A program made the translations under genes and the position numbers. The notes under the pieces are model-generated. The model ran no database searches and was not told where the DNA came from. It was given only the letters and a program-made list of their open reading frames with translations. Below, piece after piece: positions 9,497 to 49,550 of a DNA stretch of 55,355 nucleotides. Positions within the stretch are counted from its first letter, which is position 1; each line of letters begins with the position of its first letter. The stretch lies in sequence record DRR723986_5248. One strand, 5' to 3'.

Positions 9497-10859
9497 CTTT
9501 TCCATAAATGATCTTGAAGTTCAACTCAAACGATTTTGGGAGCTTTCTGGAGAAAAAATAAACTTGATAGAAACATCCTTTGACACTGCGAATGGAGCGC
9601 CTGTTTTCACAGAAAAAGGAAAATATGTCACAAGAGGCTGGACGGAATGGACTCAAGGGTTCCAGTACGGCTCGGCAATTCTCCAGTTTGATGCGACCGG
9701 CGAGGAGCAGTTTTTGAAAATCGGCAGAGATAATACCTTGAACAAAATGGCTCCCCACCTCACGCATACTGGTGTGCATGATCATGGTTTCAACAATGTG
9801 AGTACCTATGGAAATCTGCTTAGACTGATAAAAGAAGGTAAAATTGAAGGCGCTGATTGGGAGAAAAACTTCTACGAATTAGCCCTGAAAATTAGTGGAG
9901 CTGTGCAGGCCATGCGCTGGACACCTACGGTTGACGGAGGCTATATTTATTCATTCAATGGGCCACACTCTTTATTTGTGGACACCATTCGCTCATGCAG
10001 AGCTTTGGTCGTCTCACACGGTTTGGGGCATGTGCTACAAGGTGAAAATGACAAACGAATTTCACTGATCCAGCGAGCTATTCAGCATATTTTGAGCACA
10101 ATTCGATATTCGATTTACTACGGGAATGGCAGAGACACCTATGATGTTTCTGGTAGAACGGCGCATGAAATCATCTTCAACACCAACGATGGAAATTACC
10201 GTTGTCCAAATTCTCAGCAAGGCTACACAGGCTTCAGTACCTGGACTCGTGGCTTGGCTTGGGCTATTTGTGGAATTGGGGAAACGTTGGAAATTTTAGA
10301 TCAAATTGATGAAAGTGATTATGCTGAGATCATTTCTAAAAATGACTTGATCAAAGAACTAACTGAGGCCGCAAATGCCACAGCTGAATTTTACCTGGCA
10401 AATACTCCTACAGATGGAATTCCTTACTGGGATACCGGAGCTCCCAATTTGCATAAAATGGGAGATTACCTAAACGAGAAATCTGATCCTTTCAATGCGC
10501 ACGAACCTATAGATTCTTCTGCAGCTTCTATCACCGCTCAGGGATTGATCAGAATTGGGAATTGGCTGAAAAGCTCCGATCCTGAGCGATCAGAAAAGTA
10601 CATCAACGCTGGAATTCAGATAGCGGGTAATCTTTTCGCAGAGCCCTATCTATCAACTGATCCAACTCACCAAGGCTTGATCTTACACTCCATTTATCAT
10701 CAACCGAATGGCTGGGACTATAGACCAGACCCAACTAAAGCTCCTTACGGGGAGTCATGTATGTGGGGGGATTACCATGCCCGGGAGTTGGCTTTGCTTA
10801 TTCAGCGCATGCAAAAAGGAGAAAACTACTACAGCTACTTTAACTGCGTAAGCCAATGA
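9480..10859 (+). CDS. GH88-like (unsaturated glucuronyl hydrolase-like) glycoside hydrolase, cytoplasmic
   Basis: WTQGF, HDHGF, FVDT, QQGY..STWTRGLAW, PYWD, DSSAA, WGDY motifs; no signal peptide. Confidence 0.82.
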   Translation: MQLNPNFSINDLEVQLKRFWELSGEKINLIETSFDTANGAPVFTEKGKYVTRGWTEWTQGFQYGSAILQFDATGEEQFLKIGRDNTLNKMAPHLTHTGVHDHGFNNVSTYGNLLRLIKEGKIEGADWEKNFYELALKISGAVQAMRWTPTVDGGYIYSFNGPHSLFVDTIRSCRALVVSHGLGHVLQGENDKRISLIQRAIQHILSTIRYSIYYGNGRDTYDVSGRTAHEIIFNTNDGNYRCPNSQQGYTGFSTWTRGLAWAICGIGETLEILDQIDESDYAEIISKNDLIKELTEAANATAEFYLANTPTDGIPYWDTGAPNLHKMGDYLNEKSDPFNAHEPIDSSAASITAQGLIRIGNWLKSSDPERSEKYINAGIQIAGNLFAEPYLSTDPTHQGLILHSIYHQPNGWDYRPDPTKAPYGESCMWGDYHARELALLIQRMQKGENYYSYFNCVSQ

Positions 10860-12301
10860 GCACTGGAAAATACAAACCACAATACCCACGAGTTGCCCAG
10901 CTGAAAACAGCAGAAAACCTTCGTGACCATCTGAATAAAGAAGGTATCAACCTAGGTTTTGATGAAGAGTTAAAAACTGGAGAAAACTCACCTTTTGCAA
11001 GAGCACATACCACACGAGCCGGCAATAAGATTGGAAATGCGTTCTGCATTCTTCCAATGGAAGGTTGGGATGGGACTACGGACGGTAAACCTACCGAACT
11101 TACCAAAAGACGCTGGAAGAACTTTGCTATCAGCGGAGCCAAATTACTCTGGGGCTGCGAAGCTGTAGCAGTGCAGCCTTCTGGACGTGCCAATCCGAAT
11201 CAACTCATGATCAATGAGCAAAATCTCGGAGACTTTGATGAGTTATATCAAATGGTGGAAAGTGAGCACAAGGCAGCATTTGGAAGCACAGATGATTTAC
11301 TCACAGGCCTGCAACTCACACATTCAGGCAGGTTTTGCAAACCGAATAGCAAAACTCAGATGGAGCCGAAGATTCTATATTCGCATCCAGTGTTGAATAA
11401 GAAATTTGGTTTGGCGGATGATTACCCGCTTATGACTGATGGAGAAATATCCGAGCTGATCGATGCATATGTGATTGCAGCAGTTCGCGCACAAAAGACC
11501 GGATACAAGTTCGTGGACATCAAACATTGTCATGGCTATTTAGGACATGAATTCCTGAGTGCTTATGACCGTGAAGGAAAATATGGAAAGTCTTTAGAAA
11601 ACAGAACCCGTTTTATCCGGGAAATAACAGCGGGAATCAGAGCAGAAGCGCCAGGATTGGAAATTGGAGTCCGCATGAGCATTTTCGACTGGGTGCCATT
11701 TAAGCAAGGAACTGAAGGAACTGGAATTCCAGCTGCCGAAAGTCCTTATAATTATGCCTTCGGAGGAAATGAATCAGGCATAGGCGAGAATCTATCGGAG
11801 TCATTTGAGTTTTTGAAAGAATTGGAGAAGCTTGACATAGAATTGCTATGCACCACAGCAGGCAGTCCTTATTATAATCCTCACATTCAGCGCCCAGCAC
11901 TTTTCCCACCCTCAGATGGTTACATGCCGCCAGAAGATCCATTGCATGGAGTCGCTCGACAAATCGATGCTGTCGCAGGAGTAAAAAAAGCATTCCCTAA
12001 ATTCTACACCGTCGGATCTGCCTACTCTTACTTACAAGAATGGCTACCTAATGTGGCTCAAAACGTATTAGAAGCAGGAAAAGCAGATTCTATCGGATTA
12101 GGAAGAATGGTACTGAGTTATCCCGAATTGCCAGCAGATGTTCTGCAAGGAACACCAATGAAGCGGGCAAAAATCTGTCGTACCTTCTCGGATTGTACTA
12201 CGGCGCCAAGAAATGGAATGATCTCAGGATGCTTCCCACTGGATCCTTTTTACAAGAAAATGGAAATACACGAAACACTTAAAACTATCAAAGCATCATG
12301 A
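10856..12301 (+). CDS. NADH:flavin oxidoreductase (Old Yellow Enzyme-like TIM barrel)
   Basis: PMEG, QLTHSGR, KHCHGYLGHEFLS, ENRTRF, IGLGR motifs. Confidence 0.88.
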   Translation: MSTGKYKPQYPRVAQLKTAENLRDHLNKEGINLGFDEELKTGENSPFARAHTTRAGNKIGNAFCILPMEGWDGTTDGKPTELTKRRWKNFAISGAKLLWGCEAVAVQPSGRANPNQLMINEQNLGDFDELYQMVESEHKAAFGSTDDLLTGLQLTHSGRFCKPNSKTQMEPKILYSHPVLNKKFGLADDYPLMTDGEISELIDAYVIAAVRAQKTGYKFVDIKHCHGYLGHEFLSAYDREGKYGKSLENRTRFIREITAGIRAEAPGLEIGVRMSIFDWVPFKQGTEGTGIPAAESPYNYAFGGNESGIGENLSESFEFLKELEKLDIELLCTTAGSPYYNPHIQRPALFPPSDGYMPPEDPLHGVARQIDAVAGVKKAFPKFYTVGSAYSYLQEWLPNVAQNVLEAGKADSIGLGRMVLSYPELPADVLQGTPMKRAKICRTFSDCTTAPRNGMISGCFPLDPFYKKMEIHETLKTIKAS

Positions 12302-13068
12302 GCCGAGTAGCATTAGTTACTGGGGGATCCAGAGGGATTGGTTTGGGAATTGCTAAAAAACTCGCTGAGGAAGGCTTTAACCTGGCTATCAATGGAGTGC
12401 GTGAGGAGGCTAGTGTACGAGAAGCCTTGGAGGAATTGAAAGGATTTGGTGTACGGGTAGAATACCTACAAGGAAACATTGCTTCCGCAGAGGATCGTGA
12501 GGCTATTGTTTCAGGGATGATCGCTAAGTTTGGGAAAATCGACGTGCTTGTAAATAATGCGGGAGTTGCCCCGAGAACGAGATCCGATGTGTTCGATATT
12601 ACGGAAGACGATTTTGACCATTTAATGAACATCAATCAAAGAGGGACCTTTTTCCTAACCCAAGCTATCGCAAAGTGGATGTCAGAACTTAAGACTGCCA
12701 CTCCTGATTCCGAAATATCAATCATCAACGTGACCTCTATTTCTGCCACAGTAGCATCCAAGATCCGTGCATCTTATTGCATGTCCAAAGCTTCATTGGC
12801 TATGCTTTCCCAAGTCATGGCAGTGAAAATGGCTGAATTCGGAATCCCGGTTTATGAGATTCGCCCCGGAGTGATAGAGACAGATATGATAGAGAAGGTG
12901 CGGGAAAAGTATCATGAGGGAGTCAAAAATGGAATGACTTTAGAGCCTAGAATGGGTGTTCCAGAAGATATTGGAAAAGTGGTTGCTGCTTTGGTGAGAG
13001 GAGATCTTCCCTACTCCACAGGACAAGTGATTTGCGTGGATGGAGGAATGACTATCGCTAGGATGTAG
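12298..13068 (+). CDS. Short-chain dehydrogenase/reductase (FabG-like)
   Basis: TGGSRGIG, NNAG, YCMSK catalytic motif, VDGG. Confidence 0.92.
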   Translation: MSRVALVTGGSRGIGLGIAKKLAEEGFNLAINGVREEASVREALEELKGFGVRVEYLQGNIASAEDREAIVSGMIAKFGKIDVLVNNAGVAPRTRSDVFDITEDDFDHLMNINQRGTFFLTQAIAKWMSELKTATPDSEISIINVTSISATVASKIRASYCMSKASLAMLSQVMAVKMAEFGIPVYEIRPGVIETDMIEKVREKYHEGVKNGMTLEPRMGVPEDIGKVVAALVRGDLPYSTGQVICVDGGMTIARM

Positions 13069-38829: not shown

Positions 38830-38857
38830 AAAAAAGCCTGAGATGATCTCAGGCTTT
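38830..38857 (-). terminator. Rho-independent terminator after ppa
   Basis: A6 + GCCTGAGA-TGA-TCTCAGGC. Confidence 0.85.
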
Positions 38858-38861
38858 CATT

Positions 38862-39401: not shown

Positions 39402-39449
39402 AATATCTTGAATTAGTTAATAAAAAGTGAAGCTTTCACAAAGCCCATG

Positions 39450-39457
39450 CAAAGATA
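39450..39457 (-). promoter_or_regulatory. -7 promoter element (TATCTTTG) of ppa
   Basis: TAnnTTTG consensus about 50 nt upstream of ATG. Confidence 0.6.
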
Positions 39458-39490
39458 CAGTTTAGGACGAAAATGCACAGAAACCGCTCA

Positions 39491-40576
39491 TTATTTCATA
39501 TTTGGCAAAGTGACCTTGAATGTTGCCCCTTCTCCAAATACCGAAGTTAGAACTACCTTTCCTCCCATTTGCTCTACTGCTTCCTTCACCATGTAGAGAC
39601 CTAGTCCAGTTCCTACATTTTTTTGAGTCGCACGGGTAAATAAATTAAAAACATCTGAGCGATGCTTTTCCTCTATGCCGATACCATTATCTGAAAGCGT
39701 GATGGTAGCGAGATTTTCTTCCACTTCAATACTCAAACTTATCTTGTTATCAATTTGATCTCCTTTCTGGAATTGAACCGAATTGCTAAATAAGTTATTG
39801 AGGATAACCCGGATTTTCGCATCATCTGAATAAAAAGGACTAGATTGATTAATTTGGACATCAAGCTGGATATGGTCAATAGGAAACTTAGCCCTGTAAG
39901 CAACAAGCTGTTGCTCAACAACTTGCCCAAAATTAATCTCAGAGATTTTATTATCAATCTTCGTTGACCTATAGAAATCAAGCATTTTATAGATATAATC
40001 GTCCAACTTGCCAGTTGCACTATCTATCATATCAAAATACTCGGCCGCAGCAGGATCTTTAAGCTCCATTTTTGCCAACTTAGAGACACCAGAAATACTC
40101 ATCAGCGGACCTCTTAATTCGTGTGACAAGCTGTAAACAAATTGATTCATCTCTGAATGAAGCTTTTTTAGCTTTATGTTCTTTTCTTTAAGCTCACGCC
40201 TCATAAAATAAATATCGGCAGCATTCTTTATCGAATTTTTAATCTGCTCAATATTCCAAGGTTTATCAATAAAACGATAAACTTCACCCTTGTTGATTGC
40301 ATCGATAACAGAAGCTATATCGGAATAGCCGGTCAGCAAAATTCGGATTGGATCAGGATTGAACTTTACCAACTCTTCAAAAAATTCTGTCCCAGTCATC
40401 CCGGGCATTCTTTGATCAGCAATAACCACATGGATTTCTTCTTCTCTGGCGATTTTCAACCCTTCATCAGCATCTATTGCTGTAAAAATTTTAAAGTCCT
40501 TTCTTAAAGTAGCTCTGAAAGACTTTAAATTATTGTCTTCATCATCTATATAAAGGACATGGATTTTATCATTCAT
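39491..40576 (-). CDS. Cytoplasmic hybrid response regulator-histidine kinase (REC-HisKA-HATPase)
   Basis: YIDDE..ADQRMPG REC; SLSHELRGP H-box; NLFSNS, DNGIGI, GTGLGL. Confidence 0.92.
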   Translation of the reverse strand: MNDKIHVLYIDDEDNNLKSFRATLRKDFKIFTAIDADEGLKIAREEEIHVVIADQRMPGMTGTEFFEELVKFNPDPIRILLTGYSDIASVIDAINKGEVYRFIDKPWNIEQIKNSIKNAADIYFMRRELKEKNIKLKKLHSEMNQFVYSLSHELRGPLMSISGVSKLAKMELKDPAAAEYFDMIDSATGKLDDYIYKMLDFYRSTKIDNKISEINFGQVVEQQLVAYRAKFPIDHIQLDVQINQSSPFYSDDAKIRVILNNLFSNSVQFQKGDQIDNKISLSIEVEENLATITLSDNGIGIEEKHRSDVFNLFTRATQKNVGTGLGLYMVKEAVEQMGGKVVLTSVFGEGATFKVTLPNMK

Positions 40577-42668
40577 AGCGTTGAGAGCTTTGGTAAATAG
40601 GAAGTGTTATTTTAAATGTAGTCCCCTGGCCCTCTTCCGTAATTACTTCCAGCGTTCCTTTGTGATTTTCAATAATAGAGTAAACAATTGAAAGCCCCAA
40701 ACCTGTACCTTTACCGACTGCCTTTGTGGTAAAGAAAGGTTCAAATATTCGTTGTTTTACATTATCAGGCATACCTGGCCCATTATCTATAATTTCTATA
40801 GTTATAAAATCCTCCAATGACCTCGTTCTAAGTTCAATCTTAGGGTCAACAATCGTATCAATATGATCGGCTAGGGCATGAACAGCATTGTTGATAATAT
40901 TCATGAAAACCTGGTTGATTTTACCTGCCAAGCATTCTACCAATGGAAGCTCACCGAAGTCACGAACAATTCGGATTTTCGTGGGCATAGTACTATTTAA
41001 TAGGATAATTGTACTGTTGATCCCATCATGTACGTCCACTTTTTTCATATCCTGCTCATCCACCCGTGAGAACAGCCGGAGACCTTTCACAATTTCCACT
41101 GTCCTTTTTGCCCCATCATCCATACCTTTCAGCAATTGGTCAACTTCATCGAGCACGTATTCCAACTCAAGATCTTCTTCAAGCTGCTTTGCTTCTTGCT
41201 GCGATTCTGGAGTAAACTCCCTCGCACCGGTAGTTCTATAGAACTCAATCACTTCCATAATATCCTTAATATCCCGCTTGAGAGGCATGATATTAGAACT
41301 CACAAAGTTGATCGGGTTATTGATTTCATGAGCAATACCAGCTGTCAGCTGACCTAAAGAAGCCATTTTTTCTTGATTTACCAGCTGGCTTTGCGTATTC
41401 TGAAGATTTCGAAGTGCCTGTTCTAATTCATCAGTTCTGATTTTGACCTTGTCTTCCAGCATGACGTTTTGCTCACGTACTAACTGTTCATTTTTTGCAA
41501 GTATGAGTAGGCGTTCAGCTTGTTCTTTTTCCTTTTCTTTCTTTAGAATATTTATTTTATCAGCAAGAGCAAATGATAGTAAGAGTGCTTCGAATACAGA
41601 GCCAAAGGTGAACACATAGCTAGTGAAGAAGCTATTAGGTAATATGTTTAAGTCCCCAAGTAAGAATACAATCATACTGCAGATCAATAATGACCAAGAA
41701 ATCAAAAAGAATTTTGCAGGTCTATATCCTCTGGCAAGGCTGTAGGACGATATAAACAGTAAGTAAAATGGCACAATGCCCAAGAAAACCTGTAAAAATC
41801 TAAACTTCAATTGGCCTATACCAAAATCAAATAAAAAGGCTGATAATATGAATACATAAACAACTATTATACTTACTCCAATGGCATATAATTTTTTGTT
41901 AAATACTTTAGTTTTCAGAAAGCTTAATGAGTAAAATATCCCAACAATATTCACTAATGCAGTGCTGATGTAAAAACCATATTCTTTCAGAAAAACACTA
42001 GATGGCCATACAAACGCATCAACATATCCCCCTAATATTCCTTGAGTTACACCGACAAAAAATATGTAGGTGATATATAACCCATATAAATTATCCCTTG
42101 TAGAAATCCATAGGAAGAGATTGTAAAAGAACATCGCCAATATAATCCCAAAGTAGATCCCAAAAATAAGATTCCGCTCGTCTAAAGTCAGGTAATTTTT
42201 GGTGTCGGTATTTAAGCTTATTGGAACATTTACATTACCGAAGCTCTTCACTTTTACATTGTAGGTCAATGACTTATCTTCTGAAATATCCGCAAAATTA
42301 AAAAGAGAATTAAAGTCCTGATCTGCTACATTAACTCTTCCCATTTTCTTCACCAAGACTCCTTCAGCATTGTAAACTTCAATCTCATTGAGCATAGGAT
42401 TACTAAGAGAAAGAATTTGCTTCCCTGAATTCTTTGGTACTTCTGTGAGCACTACGCGTATCCAAAAACTAGCATCAGAATACCCTAACGACAAGAATTC
42501 GCCTTCGGAATTCTCAAGGCTTGAGTTTGGCAAAGCTATAAAATCCTCAACACTATTAACCCCCTGATTTTCAGAGACCCAGCCTATAAATTCAAATTGA
42601 TTCTTGGATTGCTCCTTGCAAGAAGACAGTAAGACTAATGCTAAAAAAAAGTATAAATATTTTATCAT
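40569..42668 (-). CDS. 7TM-DISM sensor histidine kinase
   Basis: Extracellular LGYSDASFWIR domain; 7 TM starting GIYFGIILAMFFYNLFL and ending EALLLSFALADKI; MASLGQLTAGIAHEINNP H-box; PFFTTK..GTGLGL. Confidence 0.92.
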   Translation of the reverse strand: MIKYLYFFLALVLLSSCKEQSKNQFEFIGWVSENQGVNSVEDFIALPNSSLENSEGEFLSLGYSDASFWIRVVLTEVPKNSGKQILSLSNPMLNEIEVYNAEGVLVKKMGRVNVADQDFNSLFNFADISEDKSLTYNVKVKSFGNVNVPISLNTDTKNYLTLDERNLIFGIYFGIILAMFFYNLFLWISTRDNLYGLYITYIFFVGVTQGILGGYVDAFVWPSSVFLKEYGFYISTALVNIVGIFYSLSFLKTKVFNKKLYAIGVSIIVVYVFILSAFLFDFGIGQLKFRFLQVFLGIVPFYLLFISSYSLARGYRPAKFFLISWSLLICSMIVFLLGDLNILPNSFFTSYVFTFGSVFEALLLSFALADKINILKKEKEKEQAERLLILAKNEQLVREQNVMLEDKVKIRTDELEQALRNLQNTQSQLVNQEKMASLGQLTAGIAHEINNPINFVSSNIMPLKRDIKDIMEVIEFYRTTGAREFTPESQQEAKQLEEDLELEYVLDEVDQLLKGMDDGAKRTVEIVKGLRLFSRVDEQDMKKVDVHDGINSTIILLNSTMPTKIRIVRDFGELPLVECLAGKINQVFMNIINNAVHALADHIDTIVDPKIELRTRSLEDFITIEIIDNGPGMPDNVKQRIFEPFFTTKAVGKGTGLGLSIVYSIIENHKGTLEVITEEGQGTTFKITLPIYQSSQRYE

Positions 42669-43351
42669 TGTACATAGGATGTATAAGTCAATTTAATTTC
42701 TCTCCCTCTATAATTTTCTTCTATCACAAGGGTGTCGTTATCTCTGATTTTAAAAATAGAATCTCTATGTTCCTGAGTAGTCATAGGCAAATTTTCAGAA
42801 TCATACATTTTCATAGCCGTAGCTATCAAATCCAATTTTGGATAGTAAAAAGTACCGTTGTTCCCAACTTGAGTTAAAATTTCATAGCCCATTTCTAATC
42901 CAAGTTTAACTGTCACCGGAGCGAATAATGCATATAAGGAAGTAAGATTAAGCTTTGGAGTAAGCGCTAAGCAAGCTTTGGACATAAAAATTGCCCCTAT
43001 ACCAAGACCGGTGATTTTTCTTGAATTCCACATTCCACATATTTCACCGGTTCCCGCATCAATATCCTTTTCTATTACATCTTTGATACTGCTGTCTAAA
43101 TCCTCAATTGCTTCTACCATTGGTAATGGAAAATCTGCGTTAGCACGGTGAATTCTCGCGCCTCCATAGATTAAACCATCTTCATCTGACTCCACTATGA
43201 CCACGATGACGTCAGGATTTTTCACCCAACTATTATTAGCAGAAGTCACTTTCTTTACTCCAATACTTTCCAGTACCTGCCTATGTCCTTCTATGAACTT
43301 CTGACACCGTTCGGGATCATTAATTGCTCTAAATGCTATTAATTTGAACAT
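42665..43351 (-). CDS. Putative GNAT-fold acyltransferase (LuxI/FeeM N-acyl amino acid synthase-like)
   Basis: Beta-strand VVIVE..GGARI, LP, then GEICGMW, G.GIG pattern resembling LuxI/FeeM; operonic with ThiF-nitroreductase. Confidence 0.55.
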   Translation of the reverse strand: MFKLIAFRAINDPERCQKFIEGHRQVLESIGVKKVTSANNSWVKNPDVIVVIVESDEDGLIYGGARIHRANADFPLPMVEAIEDLDSSIKDVIEKDIDAGTGEICGMWNSRKITGLGIGAIFMSKACLALTPKLNLTSLYALFAPVTVKLGLEMGYEILTQVGNNGTFYYPKLDLIATAMKMYDSENLPMTTQEHRDSIFKIRDNDTLVIEENYRGREIKLTYTSYVQ

Positions 43352-43356
43352 CCCGG

Positions 43357-45624
43357 TTACAGTAAAATCAAACTAGCTGAAACATCTCTTCTAAATGCTC
43401 TCATTGATGGCTCGCCCGCTTTATTAATCCTCACCATAAACACCTCTTGCTTGCTTAAGCCTCTATTGAAAATTTGGTTAAGGTCATTTTTAAACTGTTG
43501 AATCATCCCCTTTTCATTCTCTGAAAAACCGGTTGTTTTTTCCCTTAATACTCTATGAAAAATAAAAAGAGAAGATGAAATCGGCTGAAAACTATAGCCG
43601 GATAAATTAGCTTTTATCCAGACTCTTTGAATTGCTGCCCCTGCTTTGAGAAAGGCGCTTGGTGTATATTCATCCGCAGTAAACATAAGCACTGCTGATG
43701 CAGATAGTATAGTCTGATCAGAAATCTTAGTTAACCCATAGCCTAAATCATTTTTCCTAAAAAACTCAATGGTTCCAGGATCACGAACTAGCCCTACTGC
43801 TGCACGCTCTGAATTCCCCATTTCAAGTGTGGCAATATCAATCCCGTCTTTCGTTTCCAACGCTTCTTCTGCCGACCATCTTATTTCACTTATAAAATCT
43901 TTATAGCCTTGATCATGAAGTAGCCTTAGACGATCCATTCCCCCTACTATAGGAGTCAGTGCTCTTAGTTGCTCAAGGCCATCAATGATTTCTAAGCTAA
44001 CACCATCTGAAGTAGCAATATTTTTAAATTCGTCAAGTGTCTGCTTTTCTAAAGGCACTCGCTCAGCATTTTTACGATTTGTACATCGCATAGAAATGCC
44101 CGCTACTAAATCCCCGTTCAAAATAGAAATCGGATCTTCTGATCTTGAATCAAACACAATGGAGGCGATAAGTTCCTCTTCAAAATTTTGAATATGCTGA
44201 TGGATGGTCAGCTCTATACCCATAGAAGCTGCCACAAGTCTAAAATTCTGTAATGCAGCCCCAAATGCCAACAAGGATCCAGTGCCTAGGTAATCAAGTA
44301 AAGATTCACTTTTAGATTTATCATGAAGTAGGTGGAGGACGCCACCTTGATCAAATATCCATTTCCAAGGCTGACTATTCCCTCCTGAAGGAGCTGTATT
44401 GGCTTTTTCTATTAAAAAAAATAAATCCTGATGAGAAATCTTATAGTTTGAAACGTATCTGTCCTTTGGTAATAGGTCTATAAAGTACTTGTCTGTCTTT
44501 GGGGTGTTGGTAGGTTCAGGTTTAGCCTTTTCGCTTTTGCTTAATACTAGCTCATCCAAATCGACGTAATACCTACCAGATTCTACATTTTCCCCTAACA
44601 ACACTTTTCTAGAAGCATTTGCCACCGTAGCACCCCCCAAATACACAGCAGAAGCTAACTGTGGCCAAGATGAAATTGACTGACTTAGCTCTAGCAAAGA
44701 AACCTTCATTCGTGTGGAAATGGTGTTTAGTCCGATAATCTTCAATCCAACTGGGACTTTTTGCTGACTTGTTAAGTTTTTTAAATCCGAAAAATTAAAA
44801 TCTCCTAACAGGCCATGAAAAATTTCACGGGATGGCTCCCGATCAAATCTTTCAACATCCAACATTCCACGGTCTGAAGTTTCCATCAAAACAGGAATCC
44901 TTTTAGCCTTAGCTCTTTCTCTTGCCAGCACCTTGATATCCAGGCTATCACATTCGTCAATCAGTAAGTCTAAATCCCCTCCATTCGAAAGAAAATCATC
45001 AATATTATCCTCGTTTACACCATTTCTATACAAGGTGATTTTGAGATACGGATCTATTTCGAAAATCTCTCTCGCCGCCAAAACAACCTTCTCAATCCCC
45101 AAATCCAAAACTCCGGCTTTGATCCTATTGAGATTACTCAACTCCAACGTGTCAAAATCTGCCAACCTTAATTCACCACAACCTCTTTCCAAGGCTATGG
45201 TCACAGCGATGCTCCTCCCTACAGATAGTCCAATTAATCCAATTTTCTTTTTTCTGAGCTCTTGCTGCTCTTTGGTAGTGATTTTATAATTGTTACGCTG
45301 AGTTCTTACTTTAATAAAATCCTCTTCGGGAAGAAGTCTGACCAAAGCCTTTTTCCAAGGAAAGTAAACCCAATTACCATAGCTTTCCCTATCTCGTTCA
45401 ACAAAAAACTGAATCACTAGTGAGGACAATTCGGCCTCCGTAAATGATTTAGAAGGATTGTTGGCCTTAATCAACTCACTTACCTGATCTTCCAATAAGT
45501 CAATTATTGTGATTTGAGGACTATCATACAACTCTCTAAAAATTAAAGAATCCGAAAAATCTGAAGGCGTAAAGATTAACGGAAACACTTGGTCATCAAG
45601 ATGGAACTGTGTACTACTTAACAT
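43357..45624 (-). CDS. ThiF-nitroreductase di-domain enzyme (Rv1355c/OxzB-like)
   Basis: WVYFPW, IGLSVG, ADFDTLELSNLNR, DECDS, DRGMLDVERFD (ThiF); APSGGNSQPW, RCTNRK (nitroreductase). Confidence 0.88.
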   Translation of the reverse strand: MLSSTQFHLDDQVFPLIFTPSDFSDSLIFRELYDSPQITIIDLLEDQVSELIKANNPSKSFTEAELSSLVIQFFVERDRESYGNWVYFPWKKALVRLLPEEDFIKVRTQRNNYKITTKEQQELRKKKIGLIGLSVGRSIAVTIALERGCGELRLADFDTLELSNLNRIKAGVLDLGIEKVVLAAREIFEIDPYLKITLYRNGVNEDNIDDFLSNGGDLDLLIDECDSLDIKVLARERAKAKRIPVLMETSDRGMLDVERFDREPSREIFHGLLGDFNFSDLKNLTSQQKVPVGLKIIGLNTISTRMKVSLLELSQSISSWPQLASAVYLGGATVANASRKVLLGENVESGRYYVDLDELVLSKSEKAKPEPTNTPKTDKYFIDLLPKDRYVSNYKISHQDLFFLIEKANTAPSGGNSQPWKWIFDQGGVLHLLHDKSKSESLLDYLGTGSLLAFGAALQNFRLVAASMGIELTIHQHIQNFEEELIASIVFDSRSEDPISILNGDLVAGISMRCTNRKNAERVPLEKQTLDEFKNIATSDGVSLEIIDGLEQLRALTPIVGGMDRLRLLHDQGYKDFISEIRWSAEEALETKDGIDIATLEMGNSERAAVGLVRDPGTIEFFRKNDLGYGLTKISDQTILSASAVLMFTADEYTPSAFLKAGAAIQRVWIKANLSGYSFQPISSSLFIFHRVLREKTTGFSENEKGMIQQFKNDLNQIFNRGLSKQEVFMVRINKAGEPSMRAFRRDVSASLILL

Positions 45625-45818
45625 TTTGTATTATCGGGGGTGATAAATTGAAGTAAAGTTAATTTTTTCAACTATAAGTCCAATTTTTTAATACTCTTTA
45701 TAGGGTATCTTTTTATATTGGTTATTGAAAATTCCTAGAAAACAATTTTCATTAGTTATTTTTATAAAAAAACACTGTTTAATTGTAACGTATCGATTGT
45801 TTTAGACAAATTTGTTGA

Positions 45819-46292
45819 ATGGAAACTAAGCCTCAAGAAAAAATTAAAATCCTCTATGTCGATGATGAAGAAAATAACCTTCAGGCATTCAAGGCTACTT
45901 TTAGAAGAGATTACCAAATTTTTCTAGCAATTGATGCTACAGTAGCTAGAGAAGTTCTATCGAAGCAGGAAGTTGACATAATTATCACGGATCAAAGAAT
46001 GCCTGGGGAAACTGGCGTGGAATTTCTGGAATCTATTATTCCTATTTACCCTAACCCCATAAGAATACTATTGACTGGCTATACTGACATCCAAGCCGTA
46101 ATTGATGCTATTAACAAGGGACAGGTTTATCATTATCTGACAAAACCTTGGGAGGAAGATTACCTCAGGACAGTAATTAAAAACGCATTTGAGATATATC
46201 AGCTTCGCAGGGAAAACGAAAAATTAACTAAAGCATTGATTAAGGCAAATGATCAATTAGAATTTATTTTAAGACAGAACCTACTGTCTTGA
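45819..46292 (+). CDS. Single-domain response regulator with C-terminal coiled coil
   Basis: YVDDE, TDQRMPG, LLTGY, KPW; no DNA-binding domain. Confidence 0.92.
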   Translation: METKPQEKIKILYVDDEENNLQAFKATFRRDYQIFLAIDATVAREVLSKQEVDIIITDQRMPGETGVEFLESIIPIYPNPIRILLTGYTDIQAVIDAINKGQVYHYLTKPWEEDYLRTVIKNAFEIYQLRRENEKLTKALIKANDQLEFILRQNLLS

Positions 46293-46293
46293 G

Positions 46294-47505
46294 TTAATAC
46301 CTTGCAGCTAGTAACAATTGTAGCTCTTTGTGGCTCATTCCAAATTTCCTTCCCAGATAGGCATTTGTAAGACTTCCTCTGTAGGTATACACCCCTCTCA
46401 AGAACCATTTATAATTGAATATCATTTCTTCAGCCCCACCTAGATCAGCCATCTGAAGTATAAGTGGAGTGAAGATGTTACTCAAGGAATAGGACGCAGT
46501 TCTTGCTACTCTAGAAGCAATATTCGGAACACAATAATGAATAATATCATGAACCTCGTAAACAGGTTCGTCATGTGAAGTCATTCTGCCCGTTTCGATA
46601 CAACCTCCTTGATCTATGGCTACATCTATAATAATACTACCATGCATCATGTTGGCGACCATTTCTTCGGAGACCACGATTTTATTTCGACCTTTTTCAG
46701 CACGTAATGCACCGATTACCACATCTGCCTCCGAAAGCGCTTGATTTAAGCTAAAATTATCAATGGTAGAAGTGTAAATCTGCTGACCGAGCAATTGCTT
46801 AAGTCTTCTTAATTTATAGATATGGTTGTCGAAAACTTTGATATTAGCTCCTAATCCCAAGGCTGTTCTAGCGGCATATTCAGCCACTGTGCCCGCGCCT
46901 ATGATTACTACTTGAGTTGGTGGCACTCCAGTGACGCCCCCCATAATTAATCCTTTGCCGCTATTTTCGCTAGAAAGATACTCTGCAGCTATTAGCATCA
47001 CCGTACTTCCGGCGATCTCCGACATAGCACGCACTACTGGCATTCCTCCTACTTTATCCTCTAAGTATTCGAATGCTACTGCTGTTATTTTCTTTTCGTT
47101 CAGCTTCTGAATAAATTCCTGACTTTGTCTTTCCAGCTGTAGAGCTGATATAAGGCAGCTACCAGTAGTCATGTAGCTCAACTCTTCTTCTGTTGGCGGA
47201 TCTATCTTTAAAACCACCTGTGATTCGAAAACCTCTTTTTTTGAACTGGTGACTTTCGCTCCGGCATCAGAAAAATCCTGGTCGGAAAACTTTGATTGTA
47301 AGCCAGCGCCTGCCTCCACTACAACGCTAATCCCATTATTAGTAAGTAAGCCTACAGATTCTGGGGTTATGACTACGCGCTTTTCCTGTGTAGAAACTTC
47401 TTTTGGCAAACCTATAACCAAGGAGTAGTCTCTTTTTTTCACCTTGGCAGGCGATTCCTTCGGTATCAGCCCTACAGCAGTAAGTTGATCGATTTCAGCT
47501 GGCAT
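46294..47505 (-). CDS. ald: Alanine dehydrogenase
   Basis: GLPKE..EKRV, MSEIAG, IGAGTVA, DVAIDQGGCIET, HYCVPNI. Confidence 0.88.
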   Translation of the reverse strand: MPAEIDQLTAVGLIPKESPAKVKKRDYSLVIGLPKEVSTQEKRVVITPESVGLLTNNGISVVVEAGAGLQSKFSDQDFSDAGAKVTSSKKEVFESQVVLKIDPPTEEELSYMTTGSCLISALQLERQSQEFIQKLNEKKITAVAFEYLEDKVGGMPVVRAMSEIAGSTVMLIAAEYLSSENSGKGLIMGGVTGVPPTQVVIIGAGTVAEYAARTALGLGANIKVFDNHIYKLRRLKQLLGQQIYTSTIDNFSLNQALSEADVVIGALRAEKGRNKIVVSEEMVANMMHGSIIIDVAIDQGGCIETGRMTSHDEPVYEVHDIIHYCVPNIASRVARTASYSLSNIFTPLILQMADLGGAEEMIFNYKWFLRGVYTYRGSLTNAYLGRKFGMSHKELQLLLAARY

Positions 47506-47926
47506 CTTGAATATGTTGAAAGTTCAGGGTTCGTTTTGTGTCGGATTCATTGATGATCCGAATGAGGAAAAATTTCTCAGGCAAAAATGCAGCAACTTTC
47601 TCTGCCCATTCTAACCAGCAATAATTTCCACTATAAAAATACTCTTCTATTCCGATATCCAAGGCTTCTGTAGCATCATCCATTCTATAAAAATCAAAGT
47701 GGTAAAATATTTCACCAACTTGATTTTCATAGTGATTTACTATTCCAAAAGTAGGACTACTGACTTGATCTAGGATGGAATATGATTTGGACAGCGCTTT
47801 GATAAGAGTGGTTTTACCCGCTCCCATATCACCCTGAAACACCCACACTTTTTCATCAGAAGCGGCTTCAATAACAGCTGAAGCTGCTTTTCCTATCTCA
47901 TCTAGCTCGTATGTAAACTGGGTCAA
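47495..47926 (-). CDS. tsaE: tRNA threonylcarbamoyladenosine biosynthesis ATPase
   Basis: GDMGAGKTT, VSSPTF, YHFDFYR, LEWAE; TTG start. Confidence 0.95.
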   Translation of the reverse strand: MTQFTYELDEIGKAASAVIEAASDEKVWVFQGDMGAGKTTLIKALSKSYSILDQVSSPTFGIVNHYENQVGEIFYHFDFYRMDDATEALDIGIEEYFYSGNYCWLEWAEKVAAFLPEKFFLIRIINESDTKRTLNFQHIQDAS

Positions 47927-47934
47927 ATGCTCAA

Positions 47935-49491
47935 TTATTTTGGTGACAAATGAACGATCGGAATGATCATTTCCTCCAAAGATACACCTCCATGCTGGAA
48001 AGTATCCTTATAGAAGTTCACATAATAATTGTAATTATTCGGGTATGCAAAGAAATAATCTTCAACGGCAAATACATAAGTAGAAGAAACATTCAGCCGT
48101 GGCAATTTGGCGTCTTCAGGTCTTTTGATTTCAAAAACTTTCCCCTGCTCAAAGTTCAAGTTTTTGCCTTGCTTATACCTCAGGTTTGTAGTCACATTTT
48201 TATCACCTATAATTCTGTAAGGCTTATTAACTCTTTTGGTACCATGATCAGTAGTAATGATCACCTCCGCTCCTGCATCATGAATCTTTTTCAAAAGCTC
48301 AAACAAGGAAGAATGCTCAAACCAACTTGTGGTTAATGATCGGTAAGCTGACTCGTCAGGAGCTAGTTCCCGGATCATTTTCATATCTGTTCGTGCATGA
48401 GAAACCATATCCACGAAGTTATAAACTAAGACATTTAGATCATTTTGAAGGAAAGTATGAAACTGCTCTAACACAGCCTTTCCTTGGTGTGCCTGAATTA
48501 TTTTATTATAGCTGGACTTAATCGACAATCGGTTTTTCTCCAAGTTGATTCTCAACCAGTCCTCTTCGAAGTTATTTTTCCCCTCATCTGAATCCTCATC
48601 TTCCCAGAAATTTGGATAAAATCTCGCCATATCCATTGGCATCATTCCACTGAAGAGTGCATTTCTCGCAAAAGCAGTAGTGGTGGGCAAAATACTATAA
48701 TAAGTATCCTTGTCTTTTATATTGAAATAAGGAGCTATGATCGACTCTATATCCTCCCATTGATCTAATCGAAAATTATCTATCACGATAAAGAACAGCG
48801 GTTTTTTGTCCTGAAGCTGGGGAAAAACCTTTTTCTTCATTACCTGATGCGAAAGCAATGGTTTTACAGGGTTTTTCTCTTCCATCCAATCCAGATAATT
48901 ATCTTTAATGAATCTGCAGAAATTAGCATTCGCTTCTATTTTCTGTGATTCCAGCACAGGAAGCATGTTTTTATTTTCAGTATCATCGATCTGCATCTCC
49001 CAATACGTCAGTTTCCTGTAGATATCTGCCCAATCTTGATGATCTTCAGCATCACCAAATGCCATACTGATATTCATAAAATCCTGCTGATAACTTTGGG
49101 TGGTTCGCTCGTCAATCAACTGCTTGTTTTGAAGTAACTTCTTCACCGAAAGCAAAATCTGGCTTGGGTTAATCGGTTTGATCAGGTAATCAGCAATTTT
49201 CCCTCCGATCGCATCATCCATGATATGTTCTTCTTCACTTTTGGTGATCATCACCACAGGAACTTGAGGCTTCATCTGCTTGATTTGTTGCAAAGTTTCC
49301 AGACCAGTCATTCCAGGCATCATTTCATCTAGAAAAATTACATCAAAGTTTTTTTGCTCTACTTCTTCGATAGCATCCACCCCAGAATTCACCGTGGTAA
49401 TTGCATATCCTTTTTGTTCGAGGAAAAGAATGTGTGGTTTGAGCAAGTCGATTTCATCGTCAGCCCAGAGTATGTTGAATTTTTGAGACAT
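47935..49491 (-). CDS. porX: PorX-type response regulator (REC + PglZ alkaline-phosphatase-like domain)
   Basis: ILWADDEIDLLKPH, DEMMPG, IDNFR, SILPTTTAFARN, TTDHG, FQHGGVSLEEMIIP; conserved porX-tsaE order. Confidence 0.9.
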   Translation of the reverse strand: MSQKFNILWADDEIDLLKPHILFLEQKGYAITTVNSGVDAIEEVEQKNFDVIFLDEMMPGMTGLETLQQIKQMKPQVPVVMITKSEEEHIMDDAIGGKIADYLIKPINPSQILLSVKKLLQNKQLIDERTTQSYQQDFMNISMAFGDAEDHQDWADIYRKLTYWEMQIDDTENKNMLPVLESQKIEANANFCRFIKDNYLDWMEEKNPVKPLLSHQVMKKKVFPQLQDKKPLFFIVIDNFRLDQWEDIESIIAPYFNIKDKDTYYSILPTTTAFARNALFSGMMPMDMARFYPNFWEDEDSDEGKNNFEEDWLRINLEKNRLSIKSSYNKIIQAHQGKAVLEQFHTFLQNDLNVLVYNFVDMVSHARTDMKMIRELAPDESAYRSLTTSWFEHSSLFELLKKIHDAGAEVIITTDHGTKRVNKPYRIIGDKNVTTNLRYKQGKNLNFEQGKVFEIKRPEDAKLPRLNVSSTYVFAVEDYFFAYPNNYNYYVNFYKDTFQHGGVSLEEMIIPIVHLSPK

Positions 49492-49550
49492 TTCAGGTTC
49501 CGTTTCTTTTAAAATTATAATTACTTTTGAGGCAAACAAAAAAGGCCTCC

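Follow-up and report, generated by a model that had tools for sequence, protein, structure and literature searches.

Do bacteria that produce N-acyl oxazolone lipids also carry a dedicated receptor for them? The discoverers of these lipids call their physiological role in bacteria a major open question (PMC12856293; bioRxiv 10.1101/2020.06.11.147165). The question is raised by a cassette of five genes in a 55,355-nucleotide (nt) stretch of DNA from sequence record DRR723986_5248, in the following called the window. An earlier note had read this cassette as signal synthase genes expressed together with the kinase that senses their product. It consists of a block of four minus-strand genes, encoding a ThiF-nitroreductase fusion protein, a putative acyltransferase of 228 amino acids (aa; in the following called p228), a 7TMR-DISM receptor histidine kinase and a REC-kinase hybrid, and of a divergent gene for a single-domain receiver. 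The cassette is real and conserved; everything that we say about it beyond gene content and linkage is inferred.

The acyltransferase gene is constantly paired with a receptor kinase gene

A genome search detected p228 in 10 of the 61 genera of the window's family (in one of them as a paralogue of 28% identity), in 17 of the 401 genomes of a phylum sample and, there always as a single match, in 85 of the 401 genomes of a class sample (roughly a fifth; 44 of 199 genera). We fetched 60 of these loci, 16–20 kb each, for comparison: the 8 other strong matches from the family, 12 from the phylum sample, all outside the window's own genus (five own-genus matches, including G001, the genome nearest to the window, were left out), and 40 from the class sample, which represent one locus for each of 35 new genera and five more from two of those genera. 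Together with the window they form a set of 61 p228-anchored loci. Their genes were labeled according to BLAST matches with the window's domains, and unknown ones were checked with Pfam. A locus near-identical to the window (L011), the locus of the 28%-identical paralogue, which has another context (L020), and a locus anchored on the kinase (L049) were left out of the set.

In all 59 evaluable loci, a 7TMR-DISM kinase gene lies zero to one genes away from p228, that is, directly next to it or after one enzyme gene; in the other two, the contig ends just past p228. In 49 of these 59 loci, the 7TMR-DISM kinase is succeeded by a hybrid of the REC-(PAS)-kinase type, a lone divergent receiver lies upstream in 47 of 58 evaluable loci, and many loci possess an additional receiver of ~130 aa at the 3′ end. 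With the window kinase as query, full-length matches of more than 550 bits were obtained in 10 of the 61 family genomes, and the matches in the rest, at most 275 bits, covered the kinase core only. Nine of the ten genomes with a full-length kinase orthologue also contain p228; the tenth is considered below. The earlier note had proposed that synthase and kinase genes belong together. For the acyltransferase this is what we found, adjacent to a 7TMR-DISM kinase gene throughout the evaluable loci and coupled to it in divergence, and the arrangement must be more than chance because it recurs across many genera and not in the window alone. The pairing was not constant for the second enzyme that the note had named, the oxazolone synthetase.

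The second enzyme is exchangeable

The gene accompanying p228 and the kinase encodes a ThiF-nitroreductase fusion in 29 of the 61 loci, a ThiF-only protein of ~340–385 aa in 24 (in four of them located between p228 and the kinase), a class I S-adenosylmethionine methyltransferase in three and a membrane methyltransferase of the ICMT/PEMT family in two; two loci have nothing in its place and one was not evaluable. The methyltransferase genes occupy the slot between p228 and the kinase, and their frames overlap or nearly abut those of the neighbors (L041, positions 10425–11063; L042, 9003–9644; L037, 10457–11218; also L056 and L065). Three complete genomes with ThiF-less loci contain no homologue of the window's ThiF-nitroreductase anywhere (E ≤ 1e-5), and the same query found no nitroreductase part elsewhere in one ThiF-only genome.

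Because the second enzyme varies, the acyltransferase, not the oxazolone synthetase, is the constant partner of the kinase, and with the ThiF-nitroreductase in fewer than half of the loci, the term oxazolone names the window's variant, not the whole system. ThiF adenylates a carboxylate, and a lipidated amino acid is typically methylated at its carboxylate by enzymes of the ICMT family. Either reaction would leave an N-acyl amino acid with a neutral head group. For the class I methyltransferase, another site on the molecule is equally conceivable, and ring methylation has been proposed for the methyltransferase in Stieleria clusters (PMC12479983). An exchangeable second enzyme fits different head-group chemistries that are read by matched receptors.

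Alternatively, the cassette could be a gene cluster for an N-acyl amino acid with antibiotic or allelopathic action, and its two-component system would provide regulation or self-protection. There is precedent for such products, as Stieleria is cited for antimicrobial N-acyl tyrosine derivatives (PMC12856293) and clusters combining a synthase for N-acyl amino acids (NAS) with a ThiF-nitroreductase produce N-acyl dehydrotyrosines (PMC12479983). We nevertheless consider this explanation improbable: the cassette has no resistance or export gene, and the one-to-one pairing with an orthologous receptor kinase over 59 loci, together with the receptor-only variant described below, is more typical of signalling.

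p228 is a candidate N-acyl amino acid synthase

The earlier note had called p228 a putative GNAT. Sequence models gave no backing for this, as searches of Pfam (E ≤ 10), NCBIfam and the PDB (phmmer) returned nothing relevant, and a profile of 69 p228 homologues yielded weak GNAT matches at best in the PDB (serotonin N-acetyltransferase, E 0.034). The structure, on the other hand, supported it. An AlphaFold2 model based on the 69-homologue alignment reached a predicted local distance difference test score (pLDDT) of 96.1 and a predicted template modelling (TM) score of 0.92. In a Foldseek search of the PDB with this model, ranks 1–5 were taken by chains of FeeM (2g0b; E 1e-7 to 3e-7, TM score 0.74–0.78 normalized to the target, root-mean-square deviation 3.5–3.8), followed by the acyl-homoserine lactone (AHL) synthases BjaI, RpaI, TofI, EsaI, MesI and LasI (E 6e-7 to 1e-4), with ordinary GNATs ranking below these. 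The comparison with FeeM and LuxI that the note had suggested thus places p228 next to the same neighbors as TyzA from the tyz cluster of M. tuberculosis, an enzyme biochemically proven to make N-acyl tyrosine, whose closest structures are FeeM and BjaI (PMC10404671). The model of p228 has an extra C-terminal β-hairpin at about residues 207–225.

In total, 1128 homologues of p228 were found (454 representatives). Those bearing names are almost all from Bacteroidota, and the named database homologues belong to Algoriphagus, with 75–98% identity. The operon of the window is taken to be from Algoriphagus as well. Residues G64 and E103 are invariant in the 69 homologues of the alignment. Among the language-model neighbors of p228 are clusters carrying PF21926 (FeeM) and PF13444, and a natural fusion protein of ThiF and p228 exists (P0261), which places both in one pathway. 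From its predicted fold and its context, we consider p228 a candidate N-acyl amino acid synthase of the FeeM/TyzA type, yet one of a separate sequence family.

A scan of five genomes with PF21926 detected other genes and never the p228 loci. One cassette-bearing high-GC genome of the Bacteroidota (G771, contig C59) contains three clustered PF21926 matches outside the cassette, at about 45.5–50 kb (L093, L097, L099), two of them above the cut-off and one just below (26.1 vs 27 bits); p228 and classical N-acyl amino acid synthases thus occur in the same genome. Two metagenomic proteins, P0139 (570 aa) and P0126 (662 aa), are fusions in which the p228 domain is combined with a TIR domain at the N-terminus or with leucine-rich repeats. 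The distant paralogue mentioned above (G007:C41, 5363–10399) has a gene for an FAD-linked oxidase upstream and a divergent gene for a multi-PAS histidine kinase, with no 7TMR-DISM kinase adjacent.

GNATs that acylate signalling proteins exist, and p228 could likewise have the kinase or the receivers as its target, modifying or binding them as a protein acyltransferase or regulatory subunit, and make no small molecule. The database protein P0208, in which part of p228 is combined with the catalytic domain of a kinase, might appear to speak for such a role. It consists of p228 residues 44–204 and REC-kinase residues 177–360 and lacks the phospho-acceptor region; we discounted it as a true fusion because its probable origin is a deletion or chimeric contig. 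When longer forms of p228 were searched for, just one protein, of 453 aa, was obtained. Since, moreover, the closest folds of p228 are small-molecule N-acyl synthases and its exchangeable partners are tailoring enzymes for small molecules (TrzS-type, ICMT, class I methyltransferase), we regard a role in protein acylation as very improbable.

The ThiF-nitroreductase belongs to the Rv1355c/TrzS family

In the 755-aa protein, Pfam recognized ThiF at residues 113–360 (E 1e-20) and Nitroreductase, and NCBIfam an Acg-family flavin mononucleotide (FMN) oxidoreductase match at 404–685. Over nearly its whole length, the protein matched the NCBIfam model NF005901 (Rv1355c family protein) with 760 bits against a cut-off of 476 (profile positions 9–716 of 722). 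The translation contains DFD...SNLNR and DECD motifs, seen by eye, which are putatively of the ThiF type. By this sequence evidence, the protein is a member of the Rv1355c/TrzS family, in agreement with the earlier assignment to the OxzB-type di-domain enzymes, and a candidate oxazolone synthetase of the TrzS/OxzB type, in which a ThiF-like adenylating cyclase would be fused to a tandem nitroreductase-fold flavin oxidase.

The mycobacterial namesake was characterized in 2025. Rv1355c is TrzS, which converts N-acyl tryptophan, the product of Rv1356c (TrzA), to N-acyl tryptazolone by an ATP-dependent cyclization in its ThiF domain followed by an O2-dependent desaturation in its flavin oxidase domain (PMC12856293). 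Two TrzS residues were shown by mutagenesis to be catalytic, Asp217 in the adenylation motif and Arg540 in the oxidase. The founding member of the oxazolone synthetases is OxzB of Pseudoalteromonas (bioRxiv 10.1101/2020.06.11.147165).

Domains of the kinase relay

The N-terminus of the 699-aa kinase is a lipoprotein-type signal (...LLSSC). Pfam assigned it a 7TMR-DISMED2 domain (PF07696; residues 39–152; 39 bits vs a cut-off of 22), a 7TMR-DISM_7TM domain (PF07695; residues 165–371; E 1e-40; 140 bits vs a cut-off of 29; in the following called 7TM), HisKA at 438–497 and HATPase_c at 583–691, and the translation shows an H-box (AHEINNP) as well as N, G1 and G2 boxes. In one family locus (L012, G030:C15, about 10430–12495), the 7TMR-DISM kinase appears split into an open reading frame (ORF) of 145 aa and another of 542 aa that lacks the ectodomain, which could be a frameshift or a pseudogene.

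The 361-aa hybrid comprises Response_reg at 7–116, HisKA at 143–204 and HATPase_c at 251–358, with the acceptor Asp in the context ADQRMPG and the H-box SHELRGP, and is probably a second-tier kinase gated by its own receiver domain. The 157-aa receiver (REC157; Response_reg at 11–120, then a short C-terminal helix) is 54% identical to the REC domain of the hybrid (tblastn) and likely serves as the end acceptor or as a phosphate sink.

Putative synthase and sensor domain diverge together within one family

We compared the nine syntenic loci of the window's family. Kinase cores are 64–83% identical for all pairs, and between groups REC157 reaches 71–79% and the REC-kinase 61–68%. The 7TM domain has only 28–49% identity between groups and 68–81% within, and p228 has 37–53% between and 54–91% within. 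The four groups are common to 7TM and p228: the window alone, L012 with L016, L013–L015 with L017, and L018 with L019. The kinase cores of L012 and L016 (68%) are no closer to each other than those of other pairs; their 7TM domains are 68% identical and their p228 proteins the most similar. Among the matches listed, the window's kinase core is nearest to those of family members, and for its p228 and 7TM, loci from other families come at least as near. The distances of p228 and 7TM correlated with r = 0.957 (Mantel test), and with 0.855 when the kinase core was controlled for (partial Mantel test, p about 0.0004), compared to 0.523 for p228 and kinase given 7TM.

Tests over all loci used the 58 with both genes, i.e., the 59 less L044, whose accessory class was not assigned. 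Where two loci differ in their accessory enzyme, the excess of 7TM divergence over the prediction from the kinase core is larger (residual 0.023, permutation p 0.0005). No such excess related to the accessory class was found in these loci for DISMED2 (p 0.12) or the linker (p 0.25). Only this residual test and the analysis within the family single out 7TM over the kinase core.

These results bear on the main rival explanation, according to which the kinase senses an external or envelope cue, e.g., via DISMED2, and the relay, acting either post-translationally or by way of an unlinked regulator, governs the production of an N-acyl amino acid or oxazolone as a stress or membrane lipid, the genes being co-located only for co-expression. 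An outside cue is plausible because DISMED2 is an extracellular domain. Antibiotics induce oxazolone production in proteobacteria and links to stress have been proposed (PMC12856293; bioRxiv 10.1101/2020.06.11.147165), tryptazolones are mainly cell-associated (PMC12856293), and the partial Mantel test over the 58 loci, given below, is not specific to the sensor. We think this explanation rather unlikely all the same. Within the family, the coupling of p228 to 7TM exceeds that to the kinase core and the receivers, which is unexpected for an unrelated cue, and it is 7TM, not DISMED2, that diverges with the class of the accessory enzyme. Furthermore, the cassette has no DNA-binding or enzyme-linked output, and a receptor-only locus retains the relay where there is no pathway to control.

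A candidate synthase and receptor circuit

The reading that we prefer is a circuit of a synthase and its cognate receptor, in which the lipid made by p228 and the ThiF-nitroreductase is the ligand of the 7TMR-DISM kinase feeding the relay; we hold it, with the sensing step inferred, to be an evenly balanced proposition. To judge from fold and context, p228 would transfer an acyl group from acyl-CoA or an acyl carrier protein (acyl-ACP) to an amino acid, yielding an N-acyl amino acid. The ThiF domain would then adenylate the free carboxylate and cyclize the molecule to an oxazolone, which the fused flavin oxidase would desaturate, as suggested by the family membership and in line with the reactions demonstrated for TrzS and OxzB; an anionic lipid would thereby become a neutral and hydrolytically labile one. 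Going by linkage and co-divergence, the co-translated kinase would have the oxazolone product or its precursor as its cognate ligand and would most likely read it at or within the seven-helix domain. As its domains suggest, the kinase would phosphorylate two paralogous receivers, that of the REC-kinase hybrid and that of the divergent lone receiver protein, resulting in a two-tier relay whose output would not be transcriptional within the locus and whose final output would lie outside it. The signal may be shared between cells, as in quorum sensing, or may act only on the producing cell.

Several observations weigh against this circuit. With regard to the enzyme, p228 has no match to Pfam Autoind_synth, Acetyltransf_5 (PF13444) or FeeM (PF21926), and an alignment of its profile to one FeeM-family protein by hhalign was weak (probability 25%); this same match pairs E103, on the central strand, with a Glu of the FeeM-family protein. 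Within the cassette there is no transporter gene and no DNA-binding regulator but only receiver-only proteins and REC-(PAS)-kinase hybrids (Pfam), a regulator not having been sought in the rest of the genome. The tenth family genome with a full-length kinase orthologue (G041) possesses a receptor-only locus (L049; G041:C30, 8398–11657), in which the receiver, the kinase (583 bits by tblastn, 618 bits in the family-genome search) and the REC-kinase lie in the same syntenic slot and an ORF-free gap of 620 bp takes the place where ThiF and p228 would sit.

Other such points concern the co-divergence. Over the 58 loci, the partial Mantel tests were not specific to the sensor (p228 and 7TM given the kinase, 0.40; p228 and kinase given 7TM, 0.48), and nearest neighbors agreed equally often, in 22 of 58 loci, for p228 and 7TM as for p228 and the kinase. 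The pattern within the family represents few independent events because it rests on about four groups, and a shared recombination tract could mimic the coupling because p228 adjoins the half of the kinase gene that encodes the sensor. Sensor domains also generally evolve faster than kinase cores. With regard to the lipids themselves, mycobacterial tryptazolones are more abundant in cells than in the supernatant (PMC12856293), and De Rond et al. observed no phenotype on adding oxazolones to bacteria (bioRxiv 10.1101/2020.06.11.147165).

Comparison with known systems

The enzymes appear to be new members of a pathway kind already described, and closest to the TrzA-TrzS pair of Mycobacterium and Rhodococcus (PMC12856293): here too, a ThiF-flavin oxidase fusion, above the equivalog cut-off of the family, shares an operon with a small acyltransferase. 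In the cassette, however, the acyltransferase gene is located downstream and not upstream, its family is recognized by neither Pfam nor NCBIfam, and the pair is co-translated with a 7TMR-DISM kinase relay; the comparison was made by family model. As the earlier note had stated, the mycobacterial trzAS locus adjoins cyclic di-GMP (c-di-GMP) genes, and the authors who point to these neighbors raise cell-cell signalling as a possible role (PMC12856293). N-acylation, ATP-dependent cyclization and flavin-dependent desaturation would also be expected from the likeness to OxzA-OxzB of Pseudoalteromonas rubra (bioRxiv 10.1101/2020.06.11.147165) and to TyzACB of M. tuberculosis (PMC10404671), whose TyzA, like p228, is nearest to the FeeM and BjaI structures. 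The split of TyzB and TyzC shows that ThiF can work as a separate protein, as in the ThiF-only loci. Homologues of OxzB were reported from proteobacteria (56 UniProt proteins; bioRxiv 10.1101/2020.06.11.147165). The cassettes differ in belonging to Bacteroidota and, in 24 of the 61 loci, in having no nitroreductase partner in the cassette. The available parts of the three reports mention no receptor or receptor kinase for TrzA-TrzS, OxzA-OxzB or TyzACB (PMC12856293; bioRxiv 10.1101/2020.06.11.147165; PMC10404671), and our literature search, which did not cover supplementary gene-neighborhood tables, found no paper linking these enzymes to a kinase.

p228 itself has its best structural matches in FeeM (2g0b) and the LuxI-type AHL synthases, which use S-adenosylmethionine as acyl acceptor, and differs from the FeeM/NAS and LuxI families in giving no hidden Markov model match to PF21926, PF13444 or Autoind_synth and in its additional hairpin. 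For the possible products of the methyltransferase variants, methyl esters of N-acyl alanine and other N-acyl amino acids (NAMEs) from the Roseobacter group provide a chemical precedent, but these come from another phylum, stand outside AHL signalling and, in the available parts of the reports, have no known receptor (PMC6296433; PMC11580390).

The coupling of the enzymes to a dedicated receptor kinase resembles pairs of the LuxM/LuxN or CqsA/CqsS type.

In the quorum-sensing pairs LuxM/LuxN, CqsA/CqsS, LqsA/LqsS and PhcB/PhcS, the gene of a synthase for a small lipophilic signal lies beside that of a polytopic membrane kinase that reads the signal, and the neutral fatty-acid methyl ester that serves as signal in Ralstonia is the product of a methyltransferase. 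Circuits of this kind are defined by a signal that accumulates outside the cells with density. The cassette has the same neighborhood of synthase and membrane kinase, and its methyltransferase variants parallel the Ralstonia enzyme. It differs in that the receptor is a 7TMR-DISM protein with a DISMED2 ectodomain, in the predicted chemistry of the signal, and in its relay, which comprises a REC-gated second kinase and lone receivers, the locus having no DNA-binding output of the LuxO type. The LuxI/LuxN-like logic put forward in the earlier note therefore stands with respect to the enzyme assignments and the linkage of synthase and kinase, and falls short at the output, which in LuxN-LuxO circuits is a DNA-binding one.

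Organization of the locus and its flanks

The coordinates of the cassette are given in Table 1. The four coupled minus-strand genes and the divergent lone receiver gene were as previously described in coordinates, junctions and Pfam domains.

Table 1 Features of the cassette within the window.
Feature	Position	Strand	Remarks
ThiF-nitroreductase gene	43357–45624	-	755 aa; first gene of the operon (six-frame ORF list)
p228 gene	42665–43351	-	228 aa; predicted FeeM/LuxI-fold acyltransferase (ORF list)
7TMR-DISM receptor histidine kinase gene	40569–42668	-	699 aa; candidate receptor
REC-HisKA-HATPase hybrid gene	39491–40576	-	361 aa; putative second-tier kinase
Single-domain receiver gene (REC157)	45819–46292	+	157 aa; divergent from the operon
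Divergent intergenic region	45625–45818	.	194 bp; AT-rich; between receiver gene and operon

Within the four-gene block, the first two genes are separated by a gap of 5 nt (43352–43356), followed by overlaps of 4 nt (42665–42668) and 8 nt (40569–40576). The start codons are plausible, with the lipoprotein-type signal at the N-terminus of the kinase and the receiver domain of the hybrid beginning at residue 7. The divergent intergenic region presumably holds the promoters of both the receiver gene and the operon. Its matches to sigma-70-like promoters are weak and fewer than expected from shuffled sequences, in a scan that does not cover promoters of the Bacteroidota type.

In a consensus scan, none of the gene junctions within the four-gene block had a terminator-like site. 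The total of five such sites corresponds to the chance level (4.4 ± 2.0 in shuffles), and both minus-strand sites lie inside the ThiF-nitroreductase gene. A strong terminator-like hairpin is located at 38832–38858, after the downstream pyrophosphatase gene (ppa). The 89-nt gap between this gene and the REC-kinase gene (39402–39490) has no terminator-like site and contains TATCTTTG, which we take to resemble the −7 promoter motif of Bacteroidota. In scans for Rfam families and tRNAs, the sole match was a tRNA-Leu far from the cassette.

The flanking genes are housekeeping genes according to Pfam, encoding an inorganic pyrophosphatase on one side and alanine dehydrogenase, TsaE and a PorX-like REC-PglZ protein on the other. 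The latter three (46294–49539), the last of which is a response regulator of the type that regulates the type IX secretion system, keep their order in all nine family loci, and the pyrophosphatase is on the opposite flank in eight of the nine. The slot of the cassette is thus fixed within the window's family; in other families, the neighbors differ.

Implications for signalling in Bacteroidota

What makes the cassette highly interesting is that it offers a direct way to test the role of oxazolone lipids, by providing a candidate receptor for this lipid class in a conserved genetic setting. More tentatively, and as a possibility that we do not favor strongly, Bacteroidota may possess a widespread and so far undescribed signalling family, either cell-cell or strictly cognate and autocrine. 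Its signal would be an N-acyl amino acid made by a FeeM-fold synthase, with the carboxylate masked by interchangeable enzymes, and would be read by a matched 7TMR-DISM kinase. The masked products may be an oxazolone, if ThiF acts, whether alone or together with the flavin oxidase, or a methyl ester, if ICMT or class I methyltransferases act. The synthase and the seven-helix domain would co-diversify in a pherotype-like manner, and receptor-only genomes would listen in.

With the second enzyme exchangeable and synthase and seven-helix domain co-diverging in groups, nature may offer a series of signal and receptor pairs in which specificity could be studied. If such a signalling family truly exists, the large class of 7TMR-DISM receptors would gain its first class of ligands, oxazolone lipids would gain a physiological role, and Bacteroidota, for which none is known to be established, would gain a dedicated chemistry for quorum sensing.

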